Origin: an uncultured bacterium
GTDB taxonomy: Bacteria; Patescibacteriota; Saccharimonadia; UBA4664; SCTI01
Reading direction: 5' to 3'
DNA length: 64,000 nt
Assembly: GCA_963721685.1 (NCBI GenBank)
Contig: CAVRJJ010000005.1
Coordinates: forward strand, 231,943 to 295,942
In this document: positions 4,318-49,359 of the stretch, piece after piece
Position numbering within the stretch: the first letter of the stretch is position 1
How the letters are laid out: each line of letters starts with the position of its first letter
Notes under the pieces: model-generated
What the model was told of the DNA's origin: nothing
Databases searched by the model: none
The model's input: only the letters and a program-made list of their open reading frames with translations
Translations under genes and position numbers: made by a program

Positions 4318-6344
4318 ATGAGCGAATTATTGCATAAGGTGCTTACGGACTTGTCTGCTAGAGAAGATATTTCAATTCAAGCCGTTGTTGCAGGTATTGA
4401 GAAAAGATATTCTCCCTGGTACTAGGCATAGTCGAAATAGCAAAAACTAAAGCCATAAAAAAAGCAGTCCAAGAAGGGCTGCTTTTTTTACAGAGTGCCC
4501 AGAGGGAAGATGGGGGCTTTGACTGTGAAGCAACAACTAATGTATCTAGCTTTTTGAATAGCAGAATTCATAAAACACCTTTTTTTACAGCATTAATTTT
4601 GTCCGCGCTCAATGAGCCGCTAGATACTGATTTGCTTGGAAGCAAGGGAGTGAATTTTTTGCTAAAAAACAGAAGTTCAGTATGGTCGTGGAACTATTGG
4701 GAACGCGATTCGAAAGACTATAGTAGTCGGGCATACCCCGATGACCTAGATGATACATTTTGTGCTTTGGCGGCGGTAATGATTCACAAGCCTCAGAAAA
4801 TTGACGGGGCTGCCCAAGCGGCTCTAGCAAAGATGCTTATTGCAACTGAGAAGCAGCCTAGCGGACCTTATAAAACATGGTTGATAGATGCGAATGCTGG
4901 GTCAGATTGGTTGGATGTAGATATTGCTGTTAATGCCAATATAGGGTTTATGCTTGGAATGCTGGACGTCAAACTCAGAGGCCTAAAGGAATTCATTGAT
5001 GATGCTATAATAAGGAATAAGCTAAGCTCAAGATACTACATAGGCCAAGCTCCTATTATTTACTTTGTCTCTCGAAATTATAAAGGAGCACAAAGTGAGC
5101 TTTTAAAGCAAAAAGTTATAGAGGGGCTATTAAATGGATCTGAAGATTGCATAACTACTGCGATGCTTGTTTCGGCTGGATGTAATTTGAAAATTAATTC
5201 TGCTGAGCTTTCTCGGGCAATTGAAAGAATATTAATTCAGCAAGAACAAGGTATTTGGCCGGCCAATGCTCTTTACTACGAGCCTCCAATTAAAAAAATC
5301 AATTATTATGCTGGATCCAGTAGCCTTACAACAGCGCTCAGTATTGAGGCGTTACGAGCATATACTAAACTTTTATCTCTTAGTGAAAGCAAAGTATCCG
5401 TAATGTTGAGCAAAAACAAATCTTTTGTTCAACAAGCAATTTCGCAAATAGAATTAGCTAACACAGAAGTTATGAAAGAGTACGAAAAGGTTGCTTTTAT
5501 TGTGGCCTCAAAAGATCACGACCGGCAAATAATGAGTATTGCTAATGTCGTATCCGAAGCATTTCATATAGAGCTTGATCCAGCTATTGTTTTCGCGCTT
5601 AATTCCGCAAGTCTCAATGGATGGATTGCTTATTCGATTTACGACGACTTTATTGACGACGAAGGCAGCTCAAAGTTGATGGGTGTAGCAAATGTTGCTC
5701 ATCGATCCATGTTAAACAATTTTATTACAGCAGTGCCAAATGAAAAATTTCAAAAGCTTGTTTCGTCAACACTTAATCGAATGGATGAAGCAAATACTTG
5801 GGAAGCAGTGCGTACTCGCATGAGTCTGGTTAGCGGTAAAGTTAAATGGAAAGACCTGCCCAATTATGAAAATTTATCTCAGTTAGCACAACGTTCATCT
5901 GGCCATGCGCTTGGTGCACTTGGAGTGCTTTTTTTGTCAAGATTTAAAAATGATGAAGATATATTCTATATGCAAAAGTACTTTTATCATTTTCTTATTT
6001 CCCGTCAGTTAAATGATGATGCACATGACTGGTGGGATGATTTATCAAAAGGACATTTTACATCCACTGTAGCTTCGCTGATGAAAAAGTGGGGTAAGAA
6101 TGAAGTAGACCTTGCAAACGACCACGGCCAACTTTCAAATTTATTTTGGAATGAAGAAATCCCTCATACCGTAAGTATTATCAACTATCATGTCGGTAAA
6201 GCCAGAAAATCGCTTGAAGCAATGCCACATATAGTTAACAAAGTAACTTTAGCGGACTGGGTGGATAGACTTGAGTCATCCGGGAAAGCTGCCTTAAAGG
6301 CCAGGGAGGATGCGACGGTATTCATAAGGAGCTTCATGGCTTAA
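4318..6344 (+). CDS. two-domain terpenoid synthase-like protein with an N-terminal frameshift
   Basis: ATG 4318 has a TAAGGAG SD. A -1 shift in an A4 run near 4405 joins it to the 4554-6344 ORF. The N-terminal domain has Q..DGGF and DDLDDT (DxDDT-like). The C-terminal domain has DDFIDDE and NDDAHDWWDD about 123 aa apart, like FARM/SARM of trans-isoprenyl diphosphate synthases. AT-rich, about 38-42% GC. Confidence 0.5.
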
Positions 6345-6612
6345 TTTGTCTGCCTGGACTGAGAGAGCGACCGCTCCTGATCGTTTTTGACGCTCACACA
6401 CATTGTGCGATAAAGTCTCATGGACGAAGGTTGATTCTTGATTTTTATACAATTTTATGTTATCATGTCCTAGCTCTTTAACAGATCGCTACTTGCTTAG
6501 CCGTAGCTTCAGGGTCAGGTATACCCCGGTTCTTAAGCTGCGGCTAGCACAGTGCGGCACATCCAACGGCAGGCTGTAGACTCTGGCAATCCGCCAAAGT
6601 AGGCAGTAGGCC

Positions 6613-7260
6613 ATGACCAAGGAGGGCATCGTGCCCAGCAGCACCCAGATCAGCGGCTTCAACGTCGCCGCCCGCAACTACCAGAAGCTGGTGGAAGCAG
6701 TGATGAATCTCGGCGGTGGCGATGAGGCCATGAACCTCATCTTCAGCGATGCCGAGCTGCGCCACAAGCTGGCGGAGCTCCTCGTGGGTCAGGCTGGCTC
6801 GACCGCCGATCCTGGCACCGTCATCGGCCAGTTGATACTGACCGTCGATTACGGCTTCTCCGTGGAGGACAAGGTCGTGGGTGGCCACTATGACGGCTAC
6901 GTCAACCCTGCCATCACCTCGGTCAACTTCCCGCATCAGCGCGAAGGCGTCGAAAAGGTGACGCTCAGCTTTGTCAAGTTCGCCAGGGCGGGAACCACCG
7001 AAGAGCGTGAGCGTGCGCTGCTCGTGCACGGCGACCCGACCGACATGCATGACATGCTCGCTACCGGGATCAAGTATCCCGACGAGCAGCGGAAGTATCC
7101 GCTGGTCTTCCTCGGCGCTTCGTGGGTCCACCCCGATGGCAGCCGCAGGGTCGGTTGCCTCGGCGGTGACGGTGACGTCCGGGGCTGCTACCTGGATTGG
7201 ACGAGTCCGCAGGACGAGTGGTACCCGGGCTACGTTTTCGCGGTTCGCGCTCGCAAGTAG
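6613..7260 (+). CDS. DGR target (variable) protein, VR at C-terminus
   Basis: 215-aa ORF; its last 142 bp form the VR. High GC, about 62%. C-terminal GASW...RVG... resembles CLec/FGE-type DGR targets. Confidence 0.7.
   Translation: MTKEGIVPSSTQISGFNVAARNYQKLVEAVMNLGGGDEAMNLIFSDAELRHKLAELLVGQAGSTADPGTVIGQLILTVDYGFSVEDKVVGGHYDGYVNPAITSVNFPHQREGVEKVTLSFVKFARAGTTEERERALLVHGDPTDMHDMLATGIKYPDEQRKYPLVFLGASWVHPDGSRRVGCLGGDGDVRGCYLDWTSPQDEWYPGYVFAVRARK
7116..7257 (+). repeat. DGR variable repeat (VR)
   Basis: 142-bp copy of 7618-7759 with no indels. 18 mismatches, all opposite TR adenines. Confidence 0.85.
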
Positions 7261-7275
7261 TGCCCTTCGACTCTG

Positions 7276-7307
7276 GGATCCTTGGGGCTTCATCTCCCCT
7301 TGGATCC
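7276..7307 (+). other. hairpin 16 nt downstream of VR stop (GGATCC-tt-GGGG / 8-nt loop / CCCC-tt-GGATCC)
   Basis: Seen directly. Position matches the VR-flanking hairpin of characterised DGRs. Confidence 0.4.
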
Positions 7308-7617
7308 TTGGGTACGCGGCTTCGTGCCGCTTCTATCGCCTTTGGGTGACGGGAGCGGCTGGAGCCGCTTTCCATGTAATGTTATTATCATTGCGGATAG
7401 TAGATGATTCTGTTGGTGGTTACGGCTGCCAGCGATTGAACTCTAGGCAGCTGGGTAAGACAGAATGTTAGTCAACATAGTTGGCGGCAGAGATCGCCCG
7501 CCCGCTTTATAGTAATACTACTTGGTGCTGGCTATTGGTGGAGTATATCCCAAGTGAAATACAGCCATTTTCGAGTAATCGAAAGGCAGTGGTATAGGTG
7601 ATAGCCGGTACAAGAGA

Positions 7618-7759
7618 GCGCTTCGTGGGTCAACCCCGATGGCAACCGCAAGGTCGGTTACCTCAACAGTGACGGTGACATCCGGAACTGCAACCTGAAT
7701 TGGACGAATCCGCAGAACAAGTGGAACCCGAACTACGTTTTCGCGGTTCGCGCTCGCAA
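7618..7759 (+). repeat. DGR template repeat (TR)
   Basis: Invariant copy. The adenines at mutated positions sit mostly in AAC codons (10 AAC). Confidence 0.85.
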
Positions 7760-7769
7760 GTCTTATTTA

Positions 7770-8151
7770 CTAAGTCTCGTTGTCGGTGGCATGCAATTGC
7801 TTTCGCCACCCGCCGAGCATTTTGCCAACCTCATCAAGCGGTTCGCTGAGGCGTAAGTACTTTTTATTGTCCAACGCCTTAACCTCCCAGGCTATCTGTA
7901 AAAAGAACTTGAGGGCGTCAAGCTTGGTGCTAGCGCGCTGCACTATAGCAGCTTTTTGCGATTTTGGTGCGTAGCCAGCAAGCAAGATGTACTCGATGGT
8001 ATCGGCAAAGAGCGTGTCAATTTTAGCTCCTAATGTGTAGCGCGAAAGACGTGGGAAATCGGCTAAGAAGCGATGCCATAGCTTATAGGCATCGGTGCAT
8101 TTTTGGAGGACTGGTAAATCGGAAAAACTCCGGGGGGGCGCTTACGGGCAT
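7770..8151 (-). CDS. avd: Avd-like accessory variability determinant (four-helix-bundle / 23S rRNA IVS protein family), frameshifted near the start
   Basis: Reads ...FPRLSRYTLGAKIDTLFADTIEYILLAGYA...KFFLQIAWEVKALDNKKYLRLSEPLDEVGKMLGGWRKQL in the minus frame. The ATG at 8151 is out of frame by one C/G in a 7-nt G run (8132-8138). Confidence 0.6.
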
Positions 8152-9157
8152 GAAAACTCTGATCCAATTAGACGTTAACTACGACGATATTATCGCATCC
8201 AGTAACTTACTGCTAGCCTGGCGGGAGTTTAGGGCTGGCAAGCGTGGTAAGACGGACGTGCAAGCGTTTGAGCACCTGTTAATGGATAATCTGTTGTCGC
8301 TCCACGAGAAGCTGAAGCAAGGGGAGTATCATCACCAAGGTTATTATCAGTTTGGGATTTCCGACCCGAAGCCTCGGCAAATCCATAAGGCCAGCGTTCG
8401 CGACCGGGTGCTCAATCATGCCGCTTATCGCGTACTTTATCCCTTTTTTGATAAGACATTTATTTACGATTCATATTCCTGTCGCAAACACAAAGGTACG
8501 CACGCCGCTTTGCAACGATTTGAGCAGTTTGGCCGTCAGGTGAGCCGGAACGATACGCGCACCTGCTGGGTGCTCAAATGTGACATTAGAAAGTTCTTTG
8601 CCACCATTGACCAAGCAATCTTAGTAAGGATTTTGGCGGATTATATCCCCAACCCGGAGGTAATGGCACTGTTAAAGCTGGTTATTGGGAATTTCGAGAC
8701 GATGCCCGGAAAAGGCTTGCCGCTCGGCAACCTAACCTCTCAGTTGTTAGTGAACGTCTACCTTAATCGGTTCGATCAGTTTGTAAAGCACCGGCTTAAA
8801 GCTCGACACTACATTCGTTATGCCGATGACTTCGTACTTCTGTCTACCGACTGTGACTGGCTGTTAGCCCAGATTCCCTTGATTGATGATTTTCTGCGCG
8901 AACACCTGGACTTGCGAATGCACCCACAGAAAACATCGGTGCAGACACTTGCTTCGGGGATCGATTTTTTAGGGTGGGTGCATTATCCCCATCACCGGGT
9001 GGTACGCACGGCTACGAAAAGGCGAGCCTTACGGCAACTGGAACAATCAAGCTCACCTGAAACGCTACAATCGTACTTGGGACTACTCAATCATGGTGAT
9101 GCTTTTAAGGTGCGGCAGGAAATTCGTAATAAGGGGTATTTGTGGCATGAGGATTGA
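8150..9157 (+). CDS. DGR reverse transcriptase
   Basis: YADDFVLL (RT motif 5/C) and LGNLTSQ (DGR-specific replacement of QGxxxSP). 336 aa from ATG 8150; the listed ORF start at 8033 is an upstream extension. Confidence 0.85.
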   Translation: MKTLIQLDVNYDDIIASSNLLLAWREFRAGKRGKTDVQAFEHLLMDNLLSLHEKLKQGEYHHQGYYQFGISDPKPRQIHKASVRDRVLNHAAYRVLYPFFDKTFIYDSYSCRKHKGTHAALQRFEQFGRQVSRNDTRTCWVLKCDIRKFFATIDQAILVRILADYIPNPEVMALLKLVIGNFETMPGKGLPLGNLTSQLLVNVYLNRFDQFVKHRLKARHYIRYADDFVLLSTDCDWLLAQIPLIDDFLREHLDLRMHPQKTSVQTLASGIDFLGWVHYPHHRVVRTATKRRALRQLEQSSSPETLQSYLGLLNHGDAFKVRQEIRNKGYLWHED

Positions 9158-9406
9158 GCTAGCATCTGTTCAAGTCCCTCCATCTTGGTCTTGCTAAGGC
9201 AAACAAAATCATCTCAAAAAGCCCATTTCCATATCCGTTAGTGCTAAGCCGTGACTGGATTATAAGTCGTAAGCTGCCAGAAGCTTGTGGGCTTCAGTGC
9301 AAAGTGAGGATGGGTCAGGCTTCAGAGATTGACATTTATCCCAAATATTGCAATCATTATCCCCAGTTCGCTGATCTGACAATGCAGGTTACCGGAAGGA
9401 CATCAC

Positions 9407-9772
9407 ATGGTCGTGGCTCAGCTGTTGCCCGATGAATCGACTCTGCTGCATGGCAATTGTTTCGCCTTGGACGTAACGCTCACGCATACATCGGGAGTTT
9501 TCTCGGGTGTCTGTGAGGTTGACGCAGTGCTGAGGTGGATCATTTTCCTCCACATCTATCGCCGGACGGACCCGCCAAACCCGAGACCGCCGATGGCACC
9601 TGACATGCTCGTCGACAACTTCGTTGTACCGTTGCCCATATGGACTCCGGTACATACAAACGCTTGTGGCTACCGGGTGACCTCTGGGAGCCTGGTTCTG
9701 CTATTTCCGCCATCGGAACCGCTAGCGGTTAGCCGCCAGGCTCGTTTGCCCTGGTGGGAGTGGGATGAGTAG
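9407..9772 (+). CDS. hypothetical protein (high-GC cassette, gene 1)
   Basis: GGAAGGA SD 6 nt upstream of ATG. 121 aa. Confidence 0.4.
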   Translation: MVVAQLLPDESTLLHGNCFALDVTLTHTSGVFSGVCEVDAVLRWIIFLHIYRRTDPPNPRPPMAPDMLVDNFVVPLPIWTPVHTNACGYRVTSGSLVLLFPPSEPLAVSRQARLPWWEWDE

Positions 9773-9802
9773 GTACCTGCCATCAACGACGAAAGGACCA
9801 CA

Positions 9803-10189
9803 ATGGCTCGTCAAACAGCTGTAGATAGACTCGGATTGCTCGCGATTCGCGCTCTTGAAGGGCGTGTCATCACGTGCAGGACTGCCGGAACAATCCGGAT
9901 CGGCGTGATCGAAGAGATCACGCTTCGTCCGGACAAGTCGGTGAATGTCGCCTACTCCCTTCGGTCTGAAGTGGAGGGGCCTCACTGGTTGCTCGTATCG
10001 GGCGCGTCTAGCATTACGTTGCCCGTCAATGGGACACCACAACCCACACCTGACGGAACCGGCATCATGTGGTATGTCGCCACGACGACCGTCGTGATCC
10101 ATGGCCCTCTGTCGACGCCTAACGGCGTTGCGGGGTGGTTCACTGCCGCGGCAGCCATGCGGTTACGACCCCCAGCCCCTCGCGGGTGA
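9803..10189 (+). CDS. hypothetical protein (high-GC cassette, gene 2)
   Basis: AAAGGA SD. 128 aa. Confidence 0.45.
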   Translation: MARQTAVDRLGLLAIRALEGRVITCRTAGTIRIGVIEEITLRPDKSVNVAYSLRSEVEGPHWLLVSGASSITLPVNGTPQPTPDGTGIMWYVATTTVVIHGPLSTPNGVAGWFTAAAAMRLRPPAPRG

Positions 10190-10328
10190 CGACCACGCAA
10201 GTGGAGTTCGTCGCTTGCGGCGGGCTCTACTGCACTTATTCTTCTTGCAAATGAGTAGATTTATATTGCATAATCCTGGAACGTTCCTTGAACAGCCCAG
10301 TCTACGAAGCCCGAAAGGGGTAAGAAGC

Positions 10329-10982
10329 GTGAGTAAATCAGATCAACCCGCCTACACCGTCATGGTCAGGAAGCGGGACGACGGCCGGATCATGGATCTC
10401 AGCGTCGAGGGCATGACCCTGGGCAAGCGGCTGTGGATGCACATTCCGGAGTCGGATTTCACCCGCCCAGGCATACGCCTGGAGGGCGATGGGGAGGTGG
10501 GCGCCGATGTGCTTTCCCGTCTCCTCGACTTCCATGCCCGATGGGTCCAGCTGGGCCCTACCTGGCTCAGGTGGAGGGCAGAACCTAGGTTCGGCAGTGC
10601 GGCGAATCTCGCTCCGATCATGGGGCTGCTGGGACGACTTCCCGGCTGCGAGGTCGCCTACCTTCCCTGGTTCAACACCGATATGGTGGCGGTGGACATG
10701 ATGCCGTCGCTTACCACCCTGCAGGCCAACGTCCCCCACAACCCGGCAGCGTCCCCTCTGACACTTGTGGGTTCGCTGACGGAGAGTGGCGGCAAGGGGA
10801 TCGTGCTCGAAGCTCGGGCGATAGGCATTGACGACAATGGCGGTCGCGGCGAACCGCACGCCGAACTGCTGGTTCGTGAGGCGGACACGGAAAACCGCTG
10901 GCAGCTTGTGCGTGTACGACTTAAGGAGGGCACGCACCCAGGAGCTCCCAAGCCGCGCTTTCCCTACGAGATCTACAACTAA
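10329..10982 (+). CDS. hypothetical protein (high-GC cassette, gene 3)
   Basis: GTG start with AAAGGGG SD. 217 aa. Followed by a terminator. Confidence 0.45.
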   Translation: MSKSDQPAYTVMVRKRDDGRIMDLSVEGMTLGKRLWMHIPESDFTRPGIRLEGDGEVGADVLSRLLDFHARWVQLGPTWLRWRAEPRFGSAANLAPIMGLLGRLPGCEVAYLPWFNTDMVAVDMMPSLTTLQANVPHNPAASPLTLVGSLTESGGKGIVLEARAIGIDDNGGRGEPHAELLVREADTENRWQLVRVRLKEGTHPGAPKPRFPYEIYN

Positions 10983-10985
10983 CGC

Positions 10986-11012
10986 GCCCCGCAGGCCCCC
11001 GCTTGCGGGGCG
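10986..11012 (+). terminator. Rho-independent terminator
   Basis: GCCCCGCA stem / TGCGGGGC complement, followed by a short T tract. Confidence 0.5.
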
Positions 11013-24344: not shown

Positions 24345-24420
24345 TGGTGGGCCCGGCTGGACTTGAACCAGCGACCAATCGGTTATGAGCCGACTGCTCT
24401 AACCACTGAGCTACGGGCCC
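24345..24420 (-). tRNA. tRNA with CAU anticodon, probably tRNA-Ile2 (lysidine) rather than Met
   Basis: Cloverleaf GGGCCCG...CUCAUAA...CGGGCCCACCA with G1-C72. Almost identical to E. coli ileX over the D-loop, anticodon arm and T-arm as recalled. Confidence 0.7.
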
Positions 24421-24508
24421 GCGGATGCACGGATGGTACGCAACCGATTATGCTGGAAAACGCCCGGCTTTGCCAGCGCGCTGTAATTGTTACGGTAGGC
24501 ATACTACA

Positions 24509-24913
24509 ATGGAAGCTATGAATCCGGTTATTCGAAAATTCCTGCGGCGCATCCATTTTGGCTTAGTTCTAGGAATTTTAGTGGTAACCTACATTTCTTT
24601 TTATTTAGTCCAGACCATTAGCTACAACTACAAGTTAAAGCATCAAATTAATGATCTTGAAACTCGGCTGACTCACTTGCAGACTGAAAAGCAAACCTTA
24701 GAATACAAAATTCAGTACTACCAAACCGACGACTATAAGGAAAAACAAGCTCGGGCCAAGCTGGGGTTGCAGGCGCCTGGCGAAGAAGTGATTATCCTGC
24801 CCCACGACGATACCGATAAATCAAACCAAGAAGCGCGGGAAGACGAAGCGAAGCCCAAGAAGTCGAATTTTGCCCAATGGGTAGACTTTCTGCTTGGAAA
24901 AACAAGCTCTTGA
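24509..24913 (+). CDS. FtsB/DivIC-like septum formation initiator
   Basis: Single TM followed by a coiled coil. ATG at 24509. Confidence 0.5.
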   Translation: MEAMNPVIRKFLRRIHFGLVLGILVVTYISFYLVQTISYNYKLKHQINDLETRLTHLQTEKQTLEYKIQYYQTDDYKEKQARAKLGLQAPGEEVIILPHDDTDKSNQEAREDEAKPKKSNFAQWVDFLLGKTSS

Positions 24914-26505
24914 AGCGTCTCTTCCTGTTCTGCGCCTCGGCCTTCTACCTGCTGGTTGTAAGCAGCGCCTCGGCCTTTGCCGCCGAACGGATTATTACTT
25001 TCGACTCTCAGGTGACGGTTACCAAAGAAAATGTTGCCGATATTACTGAAACGATCCAATATGATTTCGGCTCCGATTACCGCCACGGCATTTTCCGCTA
25101 TGTCCCGCTGGATTATACCGATGACAAAGGAAAGAAGTACCATAATAGCCTGAAGTTTATCGGCGTTACCCAAGAGGGGAAGAAGGTGGATGTCGAGACC
25201 ACCAAGACGACCAGCAAGGGAAGCAGTAATTCCGTCATACGCATAGGAGATCCGGATACAACCATTAACGGTGTTCACACCTACGTCATCCATTACCGGT
25301 TGCTGCCGGTTGTGCGGCAAGAAGGTGCGCTTGGGTTCTTGTCGCTGGATATTACCGGTGATGGCTGGGAGGTTCCGATTGAGCGGGCAAGCGCGACGTT
25401 AGCATTTGAGGATGGTACTAGCCTATCGAACCCCAAATGTTTTTACGGCCCTCCGGGTTCTACTGCTGGATGCGTTATCCAAGAAAGCCTGCCGCCTACC
25501 TATGTAGCTCAAAATCTCAGTGCCCGGGAAGGCCTAACGGTACAGGGCCTTTTGCCGGCCGGGTATGTCAGCGAATATCTTATTGCCGGGAAAAGGGCTC
25601 CTCTGACGCTGGAAGAAATTGCTACATTTATAGTAATTGGATTAAGCATTCTGGGAGCCTTGCTTATCGCCTGGATCTTCCTCCTAAGATACCTACGCAA
25701 GCGCGGTCGTAAAAAAGCTCAAACCGTCATTGCGCAATATGAGCCTCCCAGCAATTTAACCCCAGGGGAAATCGGCTTACTGCAAGATGACACATCGGGA
25801 ATGCGTGAAATTACCGCCATGCTGATTGACCTAGCGGTACGCGGGTTCATGAAGATTGAGCAGACTAAGCCTAAAACCTGGTTTAGAAAAGCCAAATATA
25901 CTTTGCATATGCTACAAGAACCAGTGGGTCTCACGAGCTACGAGCAAAAGCTGTGGGACCAGTTGTTTGGCGGACGAAATAAAATTGCTCTGGACGATAT
26001 AAATAAGTCCTCAATGTCGGCCGCGATAACGAAAATCCATTCCGAGTTAAAGACAGGGCTCAAGAAAAAAGGCTTTTACGGATCATTTTCCAAAGAGCCG
26101 GGGCTTATGGAGAAGCTGATTGATACCGGCACCATCTCAGACGCCGGTGCGGTGGAATGGGCAAAAGTTGAAGGATTAAAGCTGTATTTAAAAGTTGCCG
26201 AAAAAGACCGGTTAAATTTTACCGACGCTCCCGAACGCACTCCGGAGCGTTTCAACAAATTGCTGCCCTACGCGGTCGCACTAGGGGTTGAAAAAGAGTG
26301 GGCCAAGCAGTTCGAGGACATTAACTTGCAGCAATCCTCCAGCTGGTACGCTGGCAATTACGCGGTCTTTTCCTCATCGGCGCTAGCCAGTGATCTTGGG
26401 GGAGGCTTCGCCTCGTCATTTAGCAGCAACGCGACCGTTTCATCGTCATCGTCCGGCGGTAGCTCGGGTGGAGGAGGCGGCGGAGGTGGAGGCGGGAGCT
26501 GGTAG
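24877..26505 (+). CDS. DUF2207-family membrane protein with C-terminal Gly-rich tail
   Basis: Signal peptide, large extracytoplasmic domain, TM, and GGSSGGGGGGGGGGSW tail. Confidence 0.6.
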   Translation: MGRLSAWKNKLLKRLFLFCASAFYLLVVSSASAFAAERIITFDSQVTVTKENVADITETIQYDFGSDYRHGIFRYVPLDYTDDKGKKYHNSLKFIGVTQEGKKVDVETTKTTSKGSSNSVIRIGDPDTTINGVHTYVIHYRLLPVVRQEGALGFLSLDITGDGWEVPIERASATLAFEDGTSLSNPKCFYGPPGSTAGCVIQESLPPTYVAQNLSAREGLTVQGLLPAGYVSEYLIAGKRAPLTLEEIATFIVIGLSILGALLIAWIFLLRYLRKRGRKKAQTVIAQYEPPSNLTPGEIGLLQDDTSGMREITAMLIDLAVRGFMKIEQTKPKTWFRKAKYTLHMLQEPVGLTSYEQKLWDQLFGGRNKIALDDINKSSMSAAITKIHSELKTGLKKKGFYGSFSKEPGLMEKLIDTGTISDAGAVEWAKVEGLKLYLKVAEKDRLNFTDAPERTPERFNKLLPYAVALGVEKEWAKQFEDINLQQSSSWYAGNYAVFSSSALASDLGGGFASSFSSNATVSSSSSGGSSGGGGGGGGGGSW

Positions 26506-26568
26506 TTTCATTTTTATTTAATCTCAAGTTGGTAAGCTGGTAGAATTGAAATAATACAAGGATTAGTT

Positions 26569-26922
26569 ATGGCATTAACTCTCGAGGAAAAACAGTATTT
26601 TGACCGGCGTTTTGACGGCATCGAGCAAGCCAGGCACGAGGATCGCGCATATTTTACGGGCTTGTTTAACGCGGCATTGCGAGAAATTTCTAAAAAGTTT
26701 GATTCCGTCCAAAAGCAGCTTGATGCCATAAAAGTGCGGATGGAACGGCTCGAAGAACGTGTCGGACAACTCGAAACGCGCGTTGCGGCGCTGGAGAAAG
26801 ATATTAAAGAAATCAAGCTAGATCTCCAGGATGTGCGCGCTCGTGTATTTGATGCGGCCCAGCGAACAGAATGGTTGTCGTTGGTGCGCCGAGTTGAGGT
26901 GCTCGAGAAAGATTGTAAATAG
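26569..26922 (+). CDS. hypothetical coiled-coil protein
   Basis: 117 aa, heptad-rich, AAGGA SD. Confidence 0.45.
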
Positions 26923-26933
26923 TAAATTCCAAA

Positions 26934-27008
<75 letters not shown>

Positions 27009-27056
27009 ATACGGTAAGCATTGTACTTGGTTAGCTTCTTCTCGAAAAGCCTTGTA

Positions 27057-27632
27057 CTAAAAGCCCAGGAAATAGTTATGAAATTTTGAGTTCTCGTCCA
27101 ATTCAGTGTGGAAAGAGGTCGCTAGGATATTTCCTTGGCGAACCGCGATTGGTGCTTCCTGGTAACTGGATAAAATCTCAACCTGAGGACCTACTGCCGT
27201 AATGCCAGGCGAGCGGATAAACACAACGTTTACGCGGTCGGGGGTGACTTTGGGTATTGATAGGCGGGCGCTAAAACTTTGGATTTGCCGCCCGTAATAG
27301 TTCCGTGTGGCAGTGATGTTGAGCCCGCCTAGTAGGACTTGGCCATCGTGCTTTTGTCCCTCAACCCGATCGGCCAACATGATTAGCCCGGCGCAGGTTC
27401 CCCATACCGGCATCTTCGCCGCGATAAATGCCCGCAACGGCTTTATGAGGCCGGTGCTTTGGGCAACAATTCCAATGGCAGTGCTTTCCCCGCCGGGAAT
27501 AATCAACGAATCAATGGCTTCTAAGTCACCAGGTGTTTTAACAAGCCGGACGGCTGCCCCGCAGCGCTCAACCGCGGCGGCGTGCTCAGCAAAATCTCCC
27601 TGGAGTGCCAGTATGCCAACAGTTTTAGCCAA
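27057..27632 (-). CDS. pdxT: pyridoxal 5'-phosphate synthase glutaminase subunit
   Basis: Class I glutamine amidotransferase blocks (GILALQG, GTCAG, IIPGGEST). Confidence 0.85.
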   Translation of the reverse strand: MAKTVGILALQGDFAEHAAAVERCGAAVRLVKTPGDLEAIDSLIIPGGESTAIGIVAQSTGLIKPLRAFIAAKMPVWGTCAGLIMLADRVEGQKHDGQVLLGGLNITATRNYYGRQIQSFSARLSIPKVTPDRVNVVFIRSPGITAVGPQVEILSSYQEAPIAVRQGNILATSFHTELDENSKFHNYFLGF

Positions 27633-27637
27633 CCTGG

Positions 27638-28522
27638 TTACCAGCCGCGGGTGGCGAGTCGCTCTTCGTTGGGCAACGTGTCGAGGTTAATGCCAACCAT
27701 CGGCTCACCTAAATCTTCACTTACCTTGGCGAGCATCTTCGCGTCATTAAAGTGAGTGGTGGCAAGCACAATGGCCTTGGCGCGCTTGGCTGGGTTGCCG
27801 CTTTTGTAAATGCCGGAGCCAACAAATACACCGTCGACACCTAATTGCATCATTAAGGCGGCGTCGGCGGGGGTGGCAATACCGCCGGCGGCGAAGTTTA
27901 CTACCGGTAAGCGGCCAAGTTTAACGGTTTGGCCAGCCAGCTCTTCCGTCACCCGCTCAGTTTTAGCGAAGGCTTTGATGGCGGCTGATCCGGCTTTTTT
28001 CAGGATTGCCAGTTCATCGCTAACGGTCCGGGCATGGCGGACGGCTTCAACGATATTGCCGGTGCCGGCTTCCCCCTTTGTTCGGATCATGGCAGCGCCT
28101 TCCTGGATGCGCCGGAGGGCTTCGCCTAAATTACGGCAGCCGCACACAAAAGGCACGGTAAAGGGGTGCTTATCAATATGGTGGGTGTCGTCAGCCGGTG
28201 TCAGGACTTCGCTTTCATCAATGTAGTCCACGCCAAGCTCCTGGAGAATTTGGGCTTCTACAAAATGACCAATGCGCGCCTTTGCCATCACCGGGATCGT
28301 TACCGCCTTAATAATTTCTTTAATCATTTTGGGGTCGCTCATGCGCGCTACACCGCCATCGGCGCGGATATCGGCTGGAACGCGTTCAAGTGCCATCACA
28401 GCCGCCGCCCCAGCCTCTTCAGCAATGCGAGCCTGTTCGGGGGTGACCACATCCATAATAACGCCGCCTTTGAGCATTTGGGCGAGGCCGCTTTTTACGG
28501 CAAAGGTTCCGGTGTGTTTCAT
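27638..28522 (-). CDS. pdxS: pyridoxal 5'-phosphate synthase lyase subunit
   Basis: Near-canonical PdxS sequence, e.g. GGVIMDV and [18 protein letters not shown]. Confidence 0.9.
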
Positions 28523-28546
28523 TACATGTATCTCATAATAATTGCT

Positions 28547-28623
<77 letters not shown>

Positions 28624-28755: not shown

Positions 28756-29190
28756 GTGCATAGGCACCTTGGATTTATGGGTAACCGACCAGAGCTTCGG
28801 GGGCAGCTTTCAGTGCTGCCTCCGTCGATCTGGAGAAAGGTGGCCGACCCCGCAACCGGGAATCCGGTAACTGCGTCGCCGCATGCGCTACGGCTCGGCA
28901 ACGGCGAGACGATCGTTTTGGGCAAGGTGGTTCGGCGCGGACAGCTTGACCTGGTGCTAGTCGAATGCGACGGCACGATGGATGAGCTTCAGAAGGCAGG
29001 AAGCATCCTGCGTACCTTGGGAATCACCAATCTCTCGGACATTCGTCCCGGCCCGATCGGCTGGTTCTCGACGGAAGGAGAGCACGAGTCGACACTCCAC
29101 GGGCTTCGTGCAGCCGCCAAGGTTGGCGCTGAACAAGCGCCCATCCTTTGGTTCCGCCGTAAGCGCCAGACGGCAACGCTCGCCGCCTAA
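28756..29190 (+). CDS. hypothetical protein (high-GC patch)
   Basis: GTG start with AGGAAGG SD. 144 aa. Confidence 0.45.
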   Translation: MHRHLGFMGNRPELRGQLSVLPPSIWRKVADPATGNPVTASPHALRLGNGETIVLGKVVRRGQLDLVLVECDGTMDELQKAGSILRTLGITNLSDIRPGPIGWFSTEGEHESTLHGLRAAAKVGAEQAPILWFRRKRQTATLAA

Positions 29191-29240
29191 TGACAACCAC
29201 GACAAGGAGTTTGACATGAGCGGAGACGTTCAACCAGGAT

Positions 29241-29492
29241 ATGGCACGAAGAGTCCAGTGCCGGCAACCGGCGTGGTCGGCCCGTTTGACGGGCTTGATC
29301 CATGCGACGGGAAGGACCAGGCAGTCCTGGCAGTTGGCCTTGCACTGCTGCGGTTGCACTTCGACTTCAGCGATCCAGCTACTGCGGAGGCTGGTTCGCC
29401 AGGCGGCGGAGAGCTTCGGCATCACCACCGAGGAGCTGAGCGACCGGATTCGGAGCTTCAAGGAAGCCCTGCTTCTCCAGCCCGGCTGGTAG
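29241..29492 (+). CDS. hypothetical small protein, possibly the frameshifted 3' part of a gene starting at 29216
   Basis: Helix-rich end (...AIQLLRRLVRQAAESFGITTEELSDRIRSFKEALLLQPGW). A strong AAGGAG SD precedes an ATG at 29216 in the other frame. Confidence 0.3.
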   Translation: MARRVQCRQPAWSARLTGLIHATGRTRQSWQLALHCCGCTSTSAIQLLRRLVRQAAESFGITTEELSDRIRSFKEALLLQPGW

Positions 29493-29698
29493 CGGCCGCG
29501 CATCGAGCCGCTGGGGGTGAGGCCGGCGCCTTGCACCACCGAGCATCAAACGGCTGTTCGGCCTTTCGAGTGAGGACCCACTGTTCGGGCCGGCATGCCG
29601 AACAAGGGCCCGATAGACGACTGAGCTTCGGCTCGCAACGCGTGTGGGCGGGGCCTAAGGGTCCCGCCTGCGCCCGCAGTTTTGTTATTATTCCATCT

Positions 29699-30619
29699 AT
29701 GAAAGACACATTCATTAACAGAATTATTTGGCCCAGCCCGGGCCGTTACGTGTTTGCGCTGTCTGGCGGCGTTGATTCGGCGGCGTTGCTTGACCTAATG
29801 GCTACTCATCCTGATGCTAGCAAGAGGCAATTAGAGGTAGTCCATTTTGACCATGGCTGGAGCGCGGAAAGTAAAAAGTACACCGAGACGGCTAGGCAAG
29901 CTGCCAATAGGTATGGTTTGCCATTTCATAGTACCCGCCGGCCGGTGAAGCGGGCGGAAGCCGAAGCCCGCCAGGCGCGGTACGGTTATTTGCGCGAAAT
30001 CCAGGAGCAGACCGGGGCGAGGGCTATTATCACCGCCCAGCATCAGGATGATTTGGTTGAAACGTTGATTATGAATGTAGAGCGGGGGACAGGACGCTAC
30101 GGGTTGTCCCCATTCGTGAGCGCTAAAGATATTCTTCGGCCTTTAGCCCGGGTGCGAAAGGCCGAGCTGCTTAAATATGCAAACGAGCGGGGACTGGAAT
30201 GGATTGAAGACCCCTCCAACCAGGATCCGGCGTTTCGGCGCAATGTGGTAAGGCGCGAGCTTATTCCCGCCTTGAAGAAAATTGAACCGGACTTTCAGGC
30301 TAAAATGATTGCAATTATTGATGAAGCAACTGGACTGAACCAGCGGATTAACAAGGGGCTTCAAGCTTACTTTGACTTTACCGACGGTAAGGCCACCGCG
30401 GACTTAAACCGGCTGCGTCGATTGCCGTTTACTACGCTTACCGAAGTGCTGGTGGCAATGGCCCGCGCTGTTCAGCCTGGTGTTGAGCTGGACAGTGTGG
30501 CAGTGGAGCAGCTAGCTCTCGATTGCAAAACGCTGCGGTTGGGTCAAGCTCGCCAGCTAACTTCTCGCTTGTCGGTCAGCTGCTCCCGTGCTAGAGTGAT
30601 TACTGTGTTTACCCCTTAG
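29699..30619 (+). CDS. tilS: tRNA(Ile)-lysidine synthetase
   Basis: SGGVDS PP-loop. Conserved tilS-ftsH neighbourhood. Short form, 307 aa. Confidence 0.8.
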   Translation: MKDTFINRIIWPSPGRYVFALSGGVDSAALLDLMATHPDASKRQLEVVHFDHGWSAESKKYTETARQAANRYGLPFHSTRRPVKRAEAEARQARYGYLREIQEQTGARAIITAQHQDDLVETLIMNVERGTGRYGLSPFVSAKDILRPLARVRKAELLKYANERGLEWIEDPSNQDPAFRRNVVRRELIPALKKIEPDFQAKMIAIIDEATGLNQRINKGLQAYFDFTDGKATADLNRLRRLPFTTLTEVLVAMARAVQPGVELDSVAVEQLALDCKTLRLGQARQLTSRLSVSCSRARVITVFTP

Positions 30620-46593: not shown

Positions 46594-49359
46594 GTGCCTT
46601 TCTTGTATGGCTACATACCAGACAAAACCTCGAAACTCTACACTGAAGCCGATGAGAAAGACAGTGCCGCGAATACTCTACTTGCATTGAACCGAGAATT
46701 TCAAAAAGGCAAAGTCGGCGACCTAAAAGAGCCTCTCGAATTGCTAACAGACCGTTTCAATATCTTCACCGATAATCTAGATAATGAGCGCTCAATATAT
46801 TCCCTTTATGAGGAGCGTAGGAGTATAGGCTACATTGAGCTTTTTTATGCGTATGGGGTGGATATCGCATGGTATGACCAGCTAGTGAACCTAGAGCAAT
46901 CAATTAGTGAAGCAGAATCTAAGGTTAATGAATTCGAAAAGAGTCGCGGTAAATTTATTAAAGCCGCTGATTCTAAGTTTAAAGATCTAGAGATAGATTA
47001 TCAGGCCACCATAGATGCTATTGAAGAAATCAACACCTATTTCAAGGCAAACATGCCCGAAAGGTCTGGCTGGATAGGCAGTAAATTAAATGACACTAAG
47101 CTGCGCAATGCGCTAAAGAAATCCTGCCGCAACATACTTCAAGAGATCTACGTAGAAATTGAGAAAATTCTTTTCTCGGATAACACTAAGTCTGCCCGCT
47201 TACAGCTACTTGATAGGGTTGAAGAATACTTTAGCTATTCTAGTGAACTGGAAATGCTGGCACAAAGCCGCTCGGCGCTACAAGAGCTTCTAGGGAGTAA
47301 GGGAATGCCGTCGACGACTTATGTAAATCTGAAAAAAGTCATCGATGAGCATGGCAAAGACAAAGTATTTAAAGATTTAACTAAATACGATGAAATATCC
47401 GATCAGATAAACGAGGTGGCATTATACTCAGCAAATGAGCTGAACCGTGAGATAAAAGATATTCGGAAGTTCTACAGAACTAATACTACAAATTATGTGC
47501 GAAATCGCATCCTAACAAGAATAGGCGAAATAAATAACAGCAAAGACATAAAAGCCACATTAGCTCAGGTTGCCAGAAGCCTCACCAAGAGTAAGAAAGC
47601 AAATAAGACATTTGATAGGCTAAAACATAACGAAGACAACTTTAGCGCAATGTCCAAGGTACTCCCTATTTGGATGATGAGCCTAGATGATGTTAGTCGT
47701 ATTGTGCCGCTACAAATGAACGCATTTGATTATGTAATTATCGATGAGGCGTCACAGTGTAACTTTGCATACGCTTTCCCTGCTATGTTCCGAGCCGAAC
47801 ATACTATTTTCTTCGGCGACACTTTGCAGATGCGGGATGACAACATTATGTTTAAGTCAAATGACCAGCTAAGTGCTATAGCCAAGAAACACAAAATACC
47901 TGATGTGTACCAAATCAAAGCCGAGGAAGATACTGTTAAGTCGGTAATGGATATCGCGCACTTAAATGGCTTCAAAACTACTACTCTCAAATACCATTAC
48001 CGTTCGCCTAAAGAACTTATTGGCTTTTCTAACGAGTCATTCTACGAGCCCATCGGACGTAAGCTGGAAGCCGTCAACGATAATATAGTGCCATTCAAAA
48101 ATACTGGACGCGTCATGATGAATCACTTAGTTAAGCCGAATGACTCAGAAGAAACATCGGATAAAACTAACTTAGCCGAGGTGCAGAAAATTCAGCAGCT
48201 AGTTGATGAGATTAGAGAAGACCCTATATTGAAGGACAAGTCGATTGCTATTCTGACGTTCTTTAATGAACAGGCCGAGCTAATACGAAATACGATTACG
48301 GATGAAGATATCAAGGTAGCAATCATCGACGGCATTCAAGGCGACGAGAAAGACATTGTTATTTATTCCTTTGTGATCAAAGACCCTAGCGATAAGAGGC
48401 GTTACATAAACCGAACTGGCGAAGGCGGTGAAATCAATAAAGACATTGCAGCGGGTCGAGTGAACGTAGCGTTTAGTCGTGCAAAGCTACAAGTTCATTG
48501 TGTAACGTCAATATCGCCAGAACTATGGCCTACGGGCATCTGGATTAAGAAGTATCTGGAATATGTCGAGAAGTATGGAGTTGTATCGCGTCGGCACATT
48601 AAATCTGAGCAACAATTTGATTCTGAATTCGAAAACCACGTTTATACTTACCTTGCCAAGAAGTTAGATGCAAATGATTATACGATTGAAACACAAACTG
48701 AATCACTAGGCTTTAAGATTGACATGACAGTACATCACAGTGGGAGAAAACTCGCCATCGAATGTGATGGTCCGACTCACTTTGAGGGTGGGGACGGTCA
48801 AGTATACGTTCAAAGCGACTGGGAGCGTCAGGGCGCATTAGAGGTTGCTGGTTGGAATTTCTATCGTATTTCGTATTTCGACTGGGTTAACGATCGGTCA
48901 GGAGAAGAAAAAGCTCTGACCGACTTTATAGCGGAATACTTTGACAATGACCACAAGATTGGCAAGACTAATGTTGTTAGAGTGCTAGAGAAAGAAACTG
49001 TAGCTCCTGTAGATGCTCCAGCAGAAATGTACGTCACCGATTTCTCCGATGAGCAGGTAGACAACATAAATGCCGTGCAAGGAACCTCTAAGCCAAAAGT
49101 CGATAAGCCTAAGACCCCAGCTAATAAAGGATTTAGCGTTGGTTCGCGTGAAGTAAACCAAGACGCATTTGGCGAATACTTGCAAGGCCGCATCTCAAAA
49201 TCGATCAACATTCGATATCAATCTACTAGGGCTGGCAGTGCAAAGTTCTGGCGTACGTTATCTCTCGTTGAGTTTGATGGTACGTATTTTTCAGCGTTTG
49301 ACTCGTACGCGGGCATGAACAAGAAGTTTCGTCGAGACCGAGTTGTAGAATTTAAGTAA
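46594..49359 (+). CDS. Upf1/DNA2-like SF1 helicase core lacking Walker A, fused to a DUF559/Vsr-like PD-(D/E)xK endonuclease domain
   Basis: GTG start with AAAGGA SD. Motif II DYVIIDEASQ, III FGDTLQM, IV YRSPKEL, V IDGIQGDEKDIVIYSFV, VI RVNVAFSRAK, then AIECDGPTHF...D. No GxxxxGK[ST] anywhere in the 921 aa. The N-terminal 330 aa is coiled-coil-like. Confidence 0.7.
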   Translation: MPFLYGYIPDKTSKLYTEADEKDSAANTLLALNREFQKGKVGDLKEPLELLTDRFNIFTDNLDNERSIYSLYEERRSIGYIELFYAYGVDIAWYDQLVNLEQSISEAESKVNEFEKSRGKFIKAADSKFKDLEIDYQATIDAIEEINTYFKANMPERSGWIGSKLNDTKLRNALKKSCRNILQEIYVEIEKILFSDNTKSARLQLLDRVEEYFSYSSELEMLAQSRSALQELLGSKGMPSTTYVNLKKVIDEHGKDKVFKDLTKYDEISDQINEVALYSANELNREIKDIRKFYRTNTTNYVRNRILTRIGEINNSKDIKATLAQVARSLTKSKKANKTFDRLKHNEDNFSAMSKVLPIWMMSLDDVSRIVPLQMNAFDYVIIDEASQCNFAYAFPAMFRAEHTIFFGDTLQMRDDNIMFKSNDQLSAIAKKHKIPDVYQIKAEEDTVKSVMDIAHLNGFKTTTLKYHYRSPKELIGFSNESFYEPIGRKLEAVNDNIVPFKNTGRVMMNHLVKPNDSEETSDKTNLAEVQKIQQLVDEIREDPILKDKSIAILTFFNEQAELIRNTITDEDIKVAIIDGIQGDEKDIVIYSFVIKDPSDKRRYINRTGEGGEINKDIAAGRVNVAFSRAKLQVHCVTSISPELWPTGIWIKKYLEYVEKYGVVSRRHIKSEQQFDSEFENHVYTYLAKKLDANDYTIETQTESLGFKIDMTVHHSGRKLAIECDGPTHFEGGDGQVYVQSDWERQGALEVAGWNFYRISYFDWVNDRSGEEKALTDFIAEYFDNDHKIGKTNVVRVLEKETVAPVDAPAEMYVTDFSDEQVDNINAVQGTSKPKVDKPKTPANKGFSVGSREVNQDAFGEYLQGRISKSINIRYQSTRAGSAKFWRTLSLVEFDGTYFSAFDSYAGMNKKFRRDRVVEFK

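Follow-up and report, generated by a model that had tools for sequence, protein, structure and literature searches.

Diversity-generating retroelements (DGRs) of the present type are common in the ultra-small bacteria of the candidate phyla radiation (CPR), whose DGRs were reportedly first surveyed by Paul et al. in 2017, and how DGR activity is regulated is, to our knowledge, a question that is still largely unanswered. The architecture designated "B3: TR-(avd)-RT", in which TR is the template repeat, avd the gene for the accessory variability determinant, and RT the reverse transcriptase gene, accounts for 90% of CPR DGRs, in which frequent substitutions at bases other than adenine were also noted (Wu et al. 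2018, PMC5758913), and such elements fall into a clade restricted to Patescibacteria, "DGR clade 2" (Roux et al. 2021, PMC8144416). In the DGR of Bordetella phage BPP-1, the order is mtd with its variable repeat (VR), avd, TR, Sp, and brt, and the RT-10 motif and Sp region lie in the spacer between TR and RT (PMC5737381). Here, we analyzed a DGR in a 64,000-nt stretch of DNA from an uncultured Saccharimonadia bacterium (assembly GCA_963721685.1, contig CAVRJJ010000005.1, positions 231,943 to 295,942; this whole stretch is referred to as the window, and positions are counted from its first base), where the element had been recognized in an initial annotation made from the sequence alone.

It is highly probable, in our judgment, that positions 6438-9157 of the window hold a self-contained chromosomal DGR cassette of ~2.7 kb with the CPR layout, in which avd is gated by a simple repeat and TR is preceded by a structured RNA. 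As a DGR, the element is ordinary for Patescibacteria and a further member of the known CPR B3 type; gene order and strands are alike, the target is small with VR at its 3' end, VR and TR are ~500 nt apart, and nothing essential differs. The out-of-frame avd, the repeat tract in avd, and the RNA 5' of TR are features of the clade as a whole, and we found no mention of any of the three in PMC5758913 or PMC8144416.

Results

A chromosomal DGR with adenine-specific diversification

The features of the cassette, in the order target with VR, TR, avd on the reverse strand, and RT, are collected in Table 1. VR, which makes up the final 48 codons of the target open reading frame (ORF), aligns with TR without gaps at an offset of 503 nt. 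The initial annotation had described gap-free repeats of 142 nt with 18 differences, each an adenine in the downstream copy, and re-alignment bore this out, with each repeat slightly longer at 144 nt. The mismatches consist of 15 A>G, two A>T, and one A>C changes, and none falls outside the TR adenines; as adenines account for 35 of the 144 nt of TR, the chance of all 18 mismatches falling on them is ~9e-12. A possible 19th A>G change lies at the 5' edge of the repeats (7617/7114). In the frame of the target ORF, 17 TR adenines occupy codon position 1, 19 occupy position 2, and none occupies position 3. All eight in-frame AAC codons of TR are altered in VR, and 11 of the 18 variable positions lie within AAC codons, rather than the ten counted originally. 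With 23 adenine-bearing codons in TR, up to ~1e21 protein variants are theoretically possible; the variable residues of the target number 15. The last 29 nt of the repeats are identical in VR and TR and GC-rich, with four adenines unmutated, and this end may function by analogy with the initiation of mutagenic homing (IMH) element of the Bordetella phage. The GC content is 63.3% in the target gene and 68.1% in VR, compared to 50.6% in the whole window (previously put at ~52%), and the excess in VR is attributable to the A>G bias; the earlier figure of ~62% for target and TR together holds for the target but not for TR (56.9%). A scan of both strands of the window with TR, in which any base was allowed at the adenines, returned no further VR-like copy, ruling out extra VRs or remote targets inside the window. 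These data support the original proposal of a genuine DGR that diversifies the C-terminus of a 215-aa protein, and the protein is identical in the other assembly known for the locus (Logan, run ERR12037361). The diversified VR is, however, a sign of past activity, not of present competence.

DGR RTs carry [ILV]GxxxSQ, together with YxDD, where the group II and retroviral enzymes have QGxxxSP. Both of the motifs reported initially can be read in the translation, YADD within YIRYADDF and the DGR-specific LGNLTSQ. The RT ORF had been taken to start at 8033; the true start is most likely the ATG at 8150, because the homologues begin there, and 8033-8149 is the strand opposite avd. A CATG palindrome holds both the RT ATG and the avd ATG, which overlap. 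The best match of the RT in the PDB is a 328-aa chain named "Reverse transcriptase" (8ub7, E 2.6e-45), which we take from its length to be the Bordetella phage RT, an identity that could not be confirmed from papers, compared to ~1e-14 for RTs of the group II and retron types, and the NCBIfam group II model scored 139 bits against a cutoff of 300. Phage matches included Bordetella phages, the archaeal virus ANMV-1, Bacteroides phages, and crAss-like phages, lineages known to carry DGRs. More than 8,000 homologues were scored, and the top ones were almost all from Patescibacteria, the nearest (73% identical) being labelled Saccharimonadales; hundreds of Patescibacteria RTs are 55-74% identical. 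The matches and motifs support placing this RT with those of DGRs and not with group II intron or retron RTs.

With the RT as the query, 80 loci from species-representative genomes and 80 metagenome loci were retrieved, and the contigs of the closest RT homologues were added (related loci carry L-numbers below). Head-to-head orientation of avd and RT was found in 74 of the 80 genome loci and 69 of the 80 metagenome loci. TR/VR pairs were detected in 70/83 loci of the first set, with VR ~360-550 nt upstream, and the distance from the end of TR to the avd stop codon, 12 nt here, is 12-69 nt in relatives. Among the 62 pairs that reach 90 nt or more, 1,070 of 1,151 mismatches (93%) are at TR adenines and 81 are not, and 1,070 of 1,973 TR adenines are changed. 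An A>G bias is also seen across the clade (62% of changed adenines; 661 G, 230 T, and 175 C), and ~7% of mismatches are non-adenine.

The locus resembles BPP-1 in the adenine-specific transfer from TR to VR, the AAC-rich TR, the C-terminal VR in a protein with a C-type-lectin fold (here predicted), the presence of both Avd and RT, the GC-rich, unmutated, IMH-like repeat end, and the hairpin directly after VR. Unlike the phage-borne BPP-1 element, it is chromosomal, as the window also encodes FtsH, LepA, MurJ, an ATP synthase subunit, and four tRNA genes, and its target has 215 aa. In some relatives, a second DGR adjoins the first (L006, 7156-10107; L035, 5253-7040), with avd on the RT strand and a target of another kind (Lcl_C in L006), and the second avd of L035 also has a G10 run immediately upstream.

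Table 1. Features of the DGR cassette and their coordinates in the window
Feature	Coordinates	Strand	Remarks
Promoter-like site before target, TTGATT-17-TATCAT with TG	6438..6466	+	Consensus scan only; weak
DGR target gene, 215-aa variable protein	6613..7260	+	Helix bundle and C-type-lectin-like domain predicted
VR	7115..7258	+	18 mismatches to TR, all at TR adenines
IMH-like VR end	7230..7258	+	No mismatch past 7229
Hairpin/cruciform just past VR (GGGATCC..GGGG-loop-CCCC..GGATCCT)	7275..7308	+	DNA fold -10.1 kcal/mol, z -2.6
Long stem-loop, then TTTCC	7316..7368	+	Fold -17.2 kcal/mol, z -3.7
Extended -10 promoter (predicted), TGtTATTAT	7380..7388	+	TGnTAnAAT-like elements at matching distance in ~25 related loci
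Conserved structured RNA, ~215 nt	7395..7611	+	Directly 5' of TR; nhmmer, RNAalifold
TR	7618..7761	+	35 adenines, none at codon position 3; 8 AAC codons
avd (accessory variability determinant)	7770..8151	-	Opposite TR and RT; body intact, ATG one base out of frame
G7 homopolymer, putative phase-variation tract	8132..8138	+	Between avd ATG and body; 11 nt before RT ATG
DGR RT, 335 aa	8150..9157	+	Pfam RVT_1 80.7 bits; LGNLTSQ and YADD

A simple repeat between the avd start codon and the body of the gene

The initial annotation had called the DGR complete and active-looking and had not seen the minus-strand avd. The RT, TR, VR, and the body of avd are indeed present, but avd lacks an in-frame start in the assembly. 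The avd body (7770-8131) has no internal stop and matches NF033474 (DivGenRetAVD) over its full length (positions 1-104 of 104) at 75.8 bits, somewhat below the cutoff of 80, while Pfam bAvd gave 34.2 bits (cutoff 40) on the truncated avd ORF, and a search with Avd against PDB sequences returned no match. Translation in three frames placed no ATG, GTG, or TTG before residue ~50 in the frame of the body and an in-frame TAA just upstream of it (8144-8142). A single ATG lies nearby (8151-8149), offset by one base from the frame of the body, and the two are separated by the G7 tract, which on the avd strand is C7 and is read as proline codons; with G6 or G9 at this site, Avd would be intact at 126-127 aa. 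The independent Logan assembly has an identical 374-aa ORF across the tract and, because this ORF spans it, also has G7. On the sequence, the putative avd switch in this window reads OFF. The leucine of a conserved Leu-Pro-Val was considered as an alternative avd start and was rejected, as the codon is TTG in only 24/78 loci and TTA in the window. Comparison of the avd DNA (7770-8149) with L002, L004, and L006 gave a mean column identity of 80%, compared to only ~73% identity between the adjoining RT proteins. If the TR transcript crosses antisense avd, a further constraint acting on the TR-RNA strand, opposite to avd, may contribute to this high conservation.

A simple repeat at the junction of avd and RT was found in 125 of the 143 related junctions, either as G7-14 or in units of 2, 4, or 7 nt. 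In the genome set, 63 G runs of at least 7 lie within 4,640 junction bases, compared to six in the other 606 kb, four of which adjoin another DGR junction. The junction runs are 7-14 G in length, mostly 9-10, and the metagenome set served as a replicate, with a tract at 61/69 junctions. In place of poly-G, other junctions have at this site (CT)11, (GA)17, (TG)9-12, (CTGG)11, or (GATTGCT)11, so that units are 1, 2, 4, or 7 nt in length and never a multiple of 3. On the avd strand, an ATG-started ORF enters the tract in all 69 of 69 loci, compared to 45% of shuffles; this shuffle control was too lenient and was replaced by the 5' ends of real genes (64-70%), with which the result held. The ATG upstream of the tract is in frame with the avd body in 25/70 and 21/62 loci, compared to 11/13 junctions that have no repeat, and the frames 0, +1, and +2 are represented by 19, 33, and 29 loci. 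In most loci, no usable start codon follows the tract.

Tract length also varies between otherwise very similar sequences. In three of nine groups of near-identical contigs (flanks at least 97% identical), the length differs, as G11/G8, (TG)9/(TG)10, and G10/G9, with 0-2 substitutions in 450 nt of flanks, and in the last of these groups, the G9 contig was called with a full bAvd of 140 aa, compared to an avd that was either not called or truncated to 79 aa in the two G10 contigs. In a subgroup of RTs without the repeat (L094-L098 and L103-L105; RT homologues P0094 and P0054), the avd ATG abuts the RT ATG, and avd was called at full length (109 or 116 aa) in seven of eight contigs, that is, in every contig that reaches it; these loci look like natural "locked-ON" versions.

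The avd tract thus has the characteristic features of a simple-sequence contingency locus, situated within the first avd codons, from which we infer that it switches. As in the contingency loci of Neisseria, Haemophilus, and Campylobacter, 7-14 G:C pairs lie just past the start codon, the units are never multiples of 3, the frames are scattered over all three phases, and length varies between otherwise identical sequences. Unlike in those loci, the gated gene encodes the accessory protein of a mutagenic retroelement rather than a surface or restriction-modification function, and the hosts are Patescibacteria.

A conserved structured RNA 5' of TR

The spacer between VR and TR is 360 nt. The hairpin just past VR has no counterpart after TR and is also present in L001, L002, and L006, with apical stems that vary in sequence yet retain their pairing (GGGG/CCCC, GGCA/TGCC, and GGCACT/AGTGCC). 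The stem-loop that follows it is likely the terminator of the target transcript, and relatives have a GC hairpin with a T-run at the same site. In ~25 loci, the TGnTAnAAT-like elements precede the conserved 5' end of the RNA, GGnAGTAG..., at a constant distance, and a separate TR-containing RNA would accordingly start near G7395 from the promoter listed in Table 1.

The core of the RNA domain is a 12-bp helix, in which 7525-7536 pairs with 7600-7611 and encloses inner hairpins. A nhmmer profile built from three loci found the domain in ~60 other loci of the first set, and it recurred in 60 of the 80 loci of the replicate set, in every case on the strand of RT and 500-665 nt ahead of it; in the 64-kb window, the profile has one match only. 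RNAalifold on 53 loci identified compensatory changes in 20 of 23 pairs. Pairing was retained in 96.1% of cells, compared to 75.6% when shuffled and 30-55% with slid partners, and the covariation score was 0.68, compared to 0.26 and 0.11-0.19, respectively. No Rfam family, RT motifs included, matched within 6300-8200 even at E<=1. Unlike in BPP-1, the conserved structured RNA is 5' of TR and not in the spacer between TR and RT. The domain is probably part of the DGR RNA and may bind or position RT-Avd, and a role in priming can be offered as speculation. A terminator-like hairpin on the + strand (7937-7952) was considered as the end of the TR RNA and was set aside because it is not conserved in L002, L004, or L006.

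The target protein and its leader

The closest known DGR variable proteins with C-type-lectin (CLec) folds are Mtd (1yu0), TvpA (2y3c), and those of the FGE-sulfatase and Lcl_C/DUF1566 types. The fold of the target had not been obvious initially, and profile and structure searches had been proposed. Of these, Pfam and NCBIfam gave no match for the 215-aa protein, and no PDB sequence matched it either. A word-indexed search recovered a single relative, whereas an exhaustive search recovered 1,560 representative clusters at E<=1e-3, mostly of ~200 aa; no meaningful Pfam match was found among 76 aligned members of the family. In a confident AlphaFold2 model based on the family alignment (pLDDT, the predicted local distance difference test score, of 91.3), a bundle of three helices (residues 11-62) makes up the N-terminal part and an alpha/beta domain the C-terminal part. 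Foldseek returned nothing significant with this model, and with moderate confidence, we regard the modeled C-terminal domain as a divergent CLec-like fold. Inspection by eye revealed no hydrophobic N-terminal stretch and no signal or tail-fibre features. According to the family hidden Markov model, 21 of 83 related DGR loci, from several CPR lineages, have a target of this type.

The promoter-like site before the target gene would imply a 5' untranslated region (UTR) of ~140 nt. This region (6473-6612) is partly conserved in L001 (440-530) and L006 (4300-4468). A hairpin (GCCGTAGCTT...AAGCTGCGGC) is common to the window and L006, and an element of the form CAGGCTGTAG-stem-AATCCG-stem-TAGGCAGTAGGC, directly before the target start, is common to the window and L001, with stems that differ in sequence and retain their pairing. 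The conserved 5' UTR, in which there was no Rfam match, may be a regulatory leader.

Surroundings of the cassette

The DGR lies in a compositionally mosaic stretch, since the region downstream of RT (9400-11000) has ~60% GC, compared to 51% for the window, and the gene that precedes the DGR (4554-6344; 596 aa, without a family match) has only 39%. The downstream region is covered by overlapping ORFs on both strands (for example, 10101-10982 on the + strand and 10338-10937 on the - strand), and Pfam and NCBIfam gave no match for the ORFs in it. Farther along, three tRNA-Met (CAT) genes lie within 4.3 kb on the minus strand (24345-28623) with ORFs between them, and these may represent initiator, elongator, and tRNA-Ile2-type copies; a TilS-like PP-loop protein (28982-30619) adjoins them. 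A block of low GC (40-44%, 46-50 kb), which may be a defence or mobile island, contains a gene (46594-49359) whose 921-aa product combines an AAA_12 helicase domain with an MTES_1575 restriction-endonuclease-like domain.

Discussion

In the mechanism that we propose, the target gene would be transcribed and terminated separately, a function suggested by the hairpins in the spacer, and the promoter at 7380-7388 would drive a second RNA consisting of the ~215-nt folded domain followed by TR, a transcript to which the conservation and covariation of the domain point. RT and Avd would copy TR into cDNA, misreading adenines with a bias toward A>G; the pattern is evident in the repeats, while the chemistry is assumed to be that of the Bordetella phage system. 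The cDNA would then replace VR, presumably guided by the 29-nt IMH-like end and by the hairpin that only VR possesses, and each replacement would recode up to 23 codons of a C-type-lectin-like, ligand-binding surface. The repeat within the first avd codons would gate the supply of Avd, as slippage, by changing the tract length, would bring the ATG and the avd body into the same frame or take them out of it. Given the tract itself, the frame statistics, and the length polymorphism, it is plausible that only a subpopulation would be competent for mutagenesis at any time and that the rest would keep VR fixed. With the G7 tract of the window, avd would be OFF, and a change to G6 or G9 would restore it.

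Several other explanations of the tract have to be weighed. Slippage of RNA polymerase on poly-C, or a ribosomal shift on CCC-C, might yield some Avd from any tract length, in which case the length of the tract in the DNA would merely set the level of Avd and the DGR would be constitutively but weakly competent. The absence of a single preferred ON frame among the 19, 33, and 29 loci would suit such recoding, as would the finding that most assemblies, including the whole subclade of the window, are out of frame when the conserved ATG is taken as the start. In every case, the tract is read as Pro-Pro-Pro, and runs of proline codons are prone to stalling and shifting (slippage of tRNA-Pro and dependence on elongation factor P). 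A programmed ribosomal shift would, however, give one constant offset, which is not seen; the dinucleotide, CTGG, and GATTGCT repeats that occupy the same site are not known ribosomal slippery sites; and the length polymorphism was directly observed at the level of DNA. We therefore regard recoding as a fairly unlikely account of the tract, and it is in any case compatible with heritable switching rather than exclusive of it. Control of RT instead of avd, through changes in promoter spacing or leader structure with tract length, appears decidedly unlikely. Poly-G or poly-C promoter spacers are known from Neisseria and Bordetella, 11 nt separate the end of the tract from the RT ATG here, compared to roughly 15-70 nt in relatives, and a TAnnnT hexamer directly follows it in 39/117 loci. 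Yet tract length and flanking distance show no compensation (r = 0.01; total 15-35 nt), repeats of 44-77 nt are too long for the spacer between -35 and -10 elements, and control of RT would leave unexplained why the units are never multiples of 3 and why an ATG-started ORF always enters the tract. A specific version of this model, with a -35-like CTGGCA at the avd Leu-Pro codons and the TAnnnT box, gave spacings of 17-19 nt in a hand-picked subset and was rejected when 117 loci gave 15-35 nt. An effect of the tract on RT expression could nonetheless exist in addition to the gating of avd.

The remaining explanations concern the state of the locus itself. If the element had decayed, with avd a pseudogene, the DGR dead, and the VR differences fossil, an avd with no in-frame start would be expected, and G7 is the shortest and so the least mutable tract in the set. 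This seems very unlikely to us, since the avd body is uninterrupted by stops, with an end-to-end match to the Avd profile, the RT is full length with its catalytic motifs, the TR adenines are all at codon positions 1 and 2, and the promoter, the RNA domain, and the hairpin after VR have each remained intact. Equally, the true tract might be G6 (or G9), leaving avd intact and the DGR constitutively complete, as homopolymer errors are common and a single base separates the assembly from an intact 126-aa Avd. The Logan assembly also has G7, although it may derive from the same reads, and approximately two-thirds of the 132 tract-bearing loci, from many projects and platforms, are out of frame, a proportion that random plus-or-minus-one errors on in-frame genes would not produce. 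An assembly artefact is thus the least probable of these explanations, and we consider it remote.

A number of observations weigh against repeat-gated switching of avd as we propose it. Frame toggling by tract length was observed in relatives and not in the strain of the window, and the G7 tract, being the shortest in the set, may switch slowly or be an allele that has decayed and is locked OFF. From the conserved GGCAT start, the subclade to which the window belongs is out of frame in all five of its members (the window, L002, L004, L006, and L107), L006 being in frame only via another ATG; this would fit a state that is mostly OFF, but it would also fit recoding. An ON fraction of ~1/3 is also what chance would give if the tract were irrelevant to translation, and the case for a switch therefore rests on the missing downstream starts, the upstream ORF that is always open, and the contrast with repeat-free loci. 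Short-read assemblies can miscount a homopolymer by one base, and the evidence on tract and VR comes from assembled contigs. Finally, we found no description of the avd tract or the 5' RNA in the accessible literature, which excludes the key survey of Paul et al. 2017.

We extend the proposed mechanism to the clade only tentatively. It is possible, with slightly less than even confidence on our part, that in most Patescibacteria DGRs, mutagenesis is under the control of a heritable, stochastic switch in the avd repeat and that the RNA 5' of TR serves as a scaffold or priming element for RT and Avd. The locus described here is otherwise one more member of a clade catalogued in thousands, together with a target family that has no Pfam model. 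If the extension is correct, the frame switch in avd would provide a simple and testable answer to the question of regulation for the largest clade of cellular DGRs, and it would explain why many CPR avd genes are annotated as truncated or are not called. An RNA 5' of TR would imply a reverse-transcription complex that is differently organized, and the covarying RNA offers a defined construct for efforts to reconstitute a DGR other than that of Bordetella and, along with the conserved promoter, a sequence handle for TRs. Both the tract switch and the RNA domain also bear on efforts to repurpose DGRs for directed evolution. For the organisms themselves, the arrangement would amount to bet-hedging by a "mutator of the mutator", in which one hypermutable site controls another.

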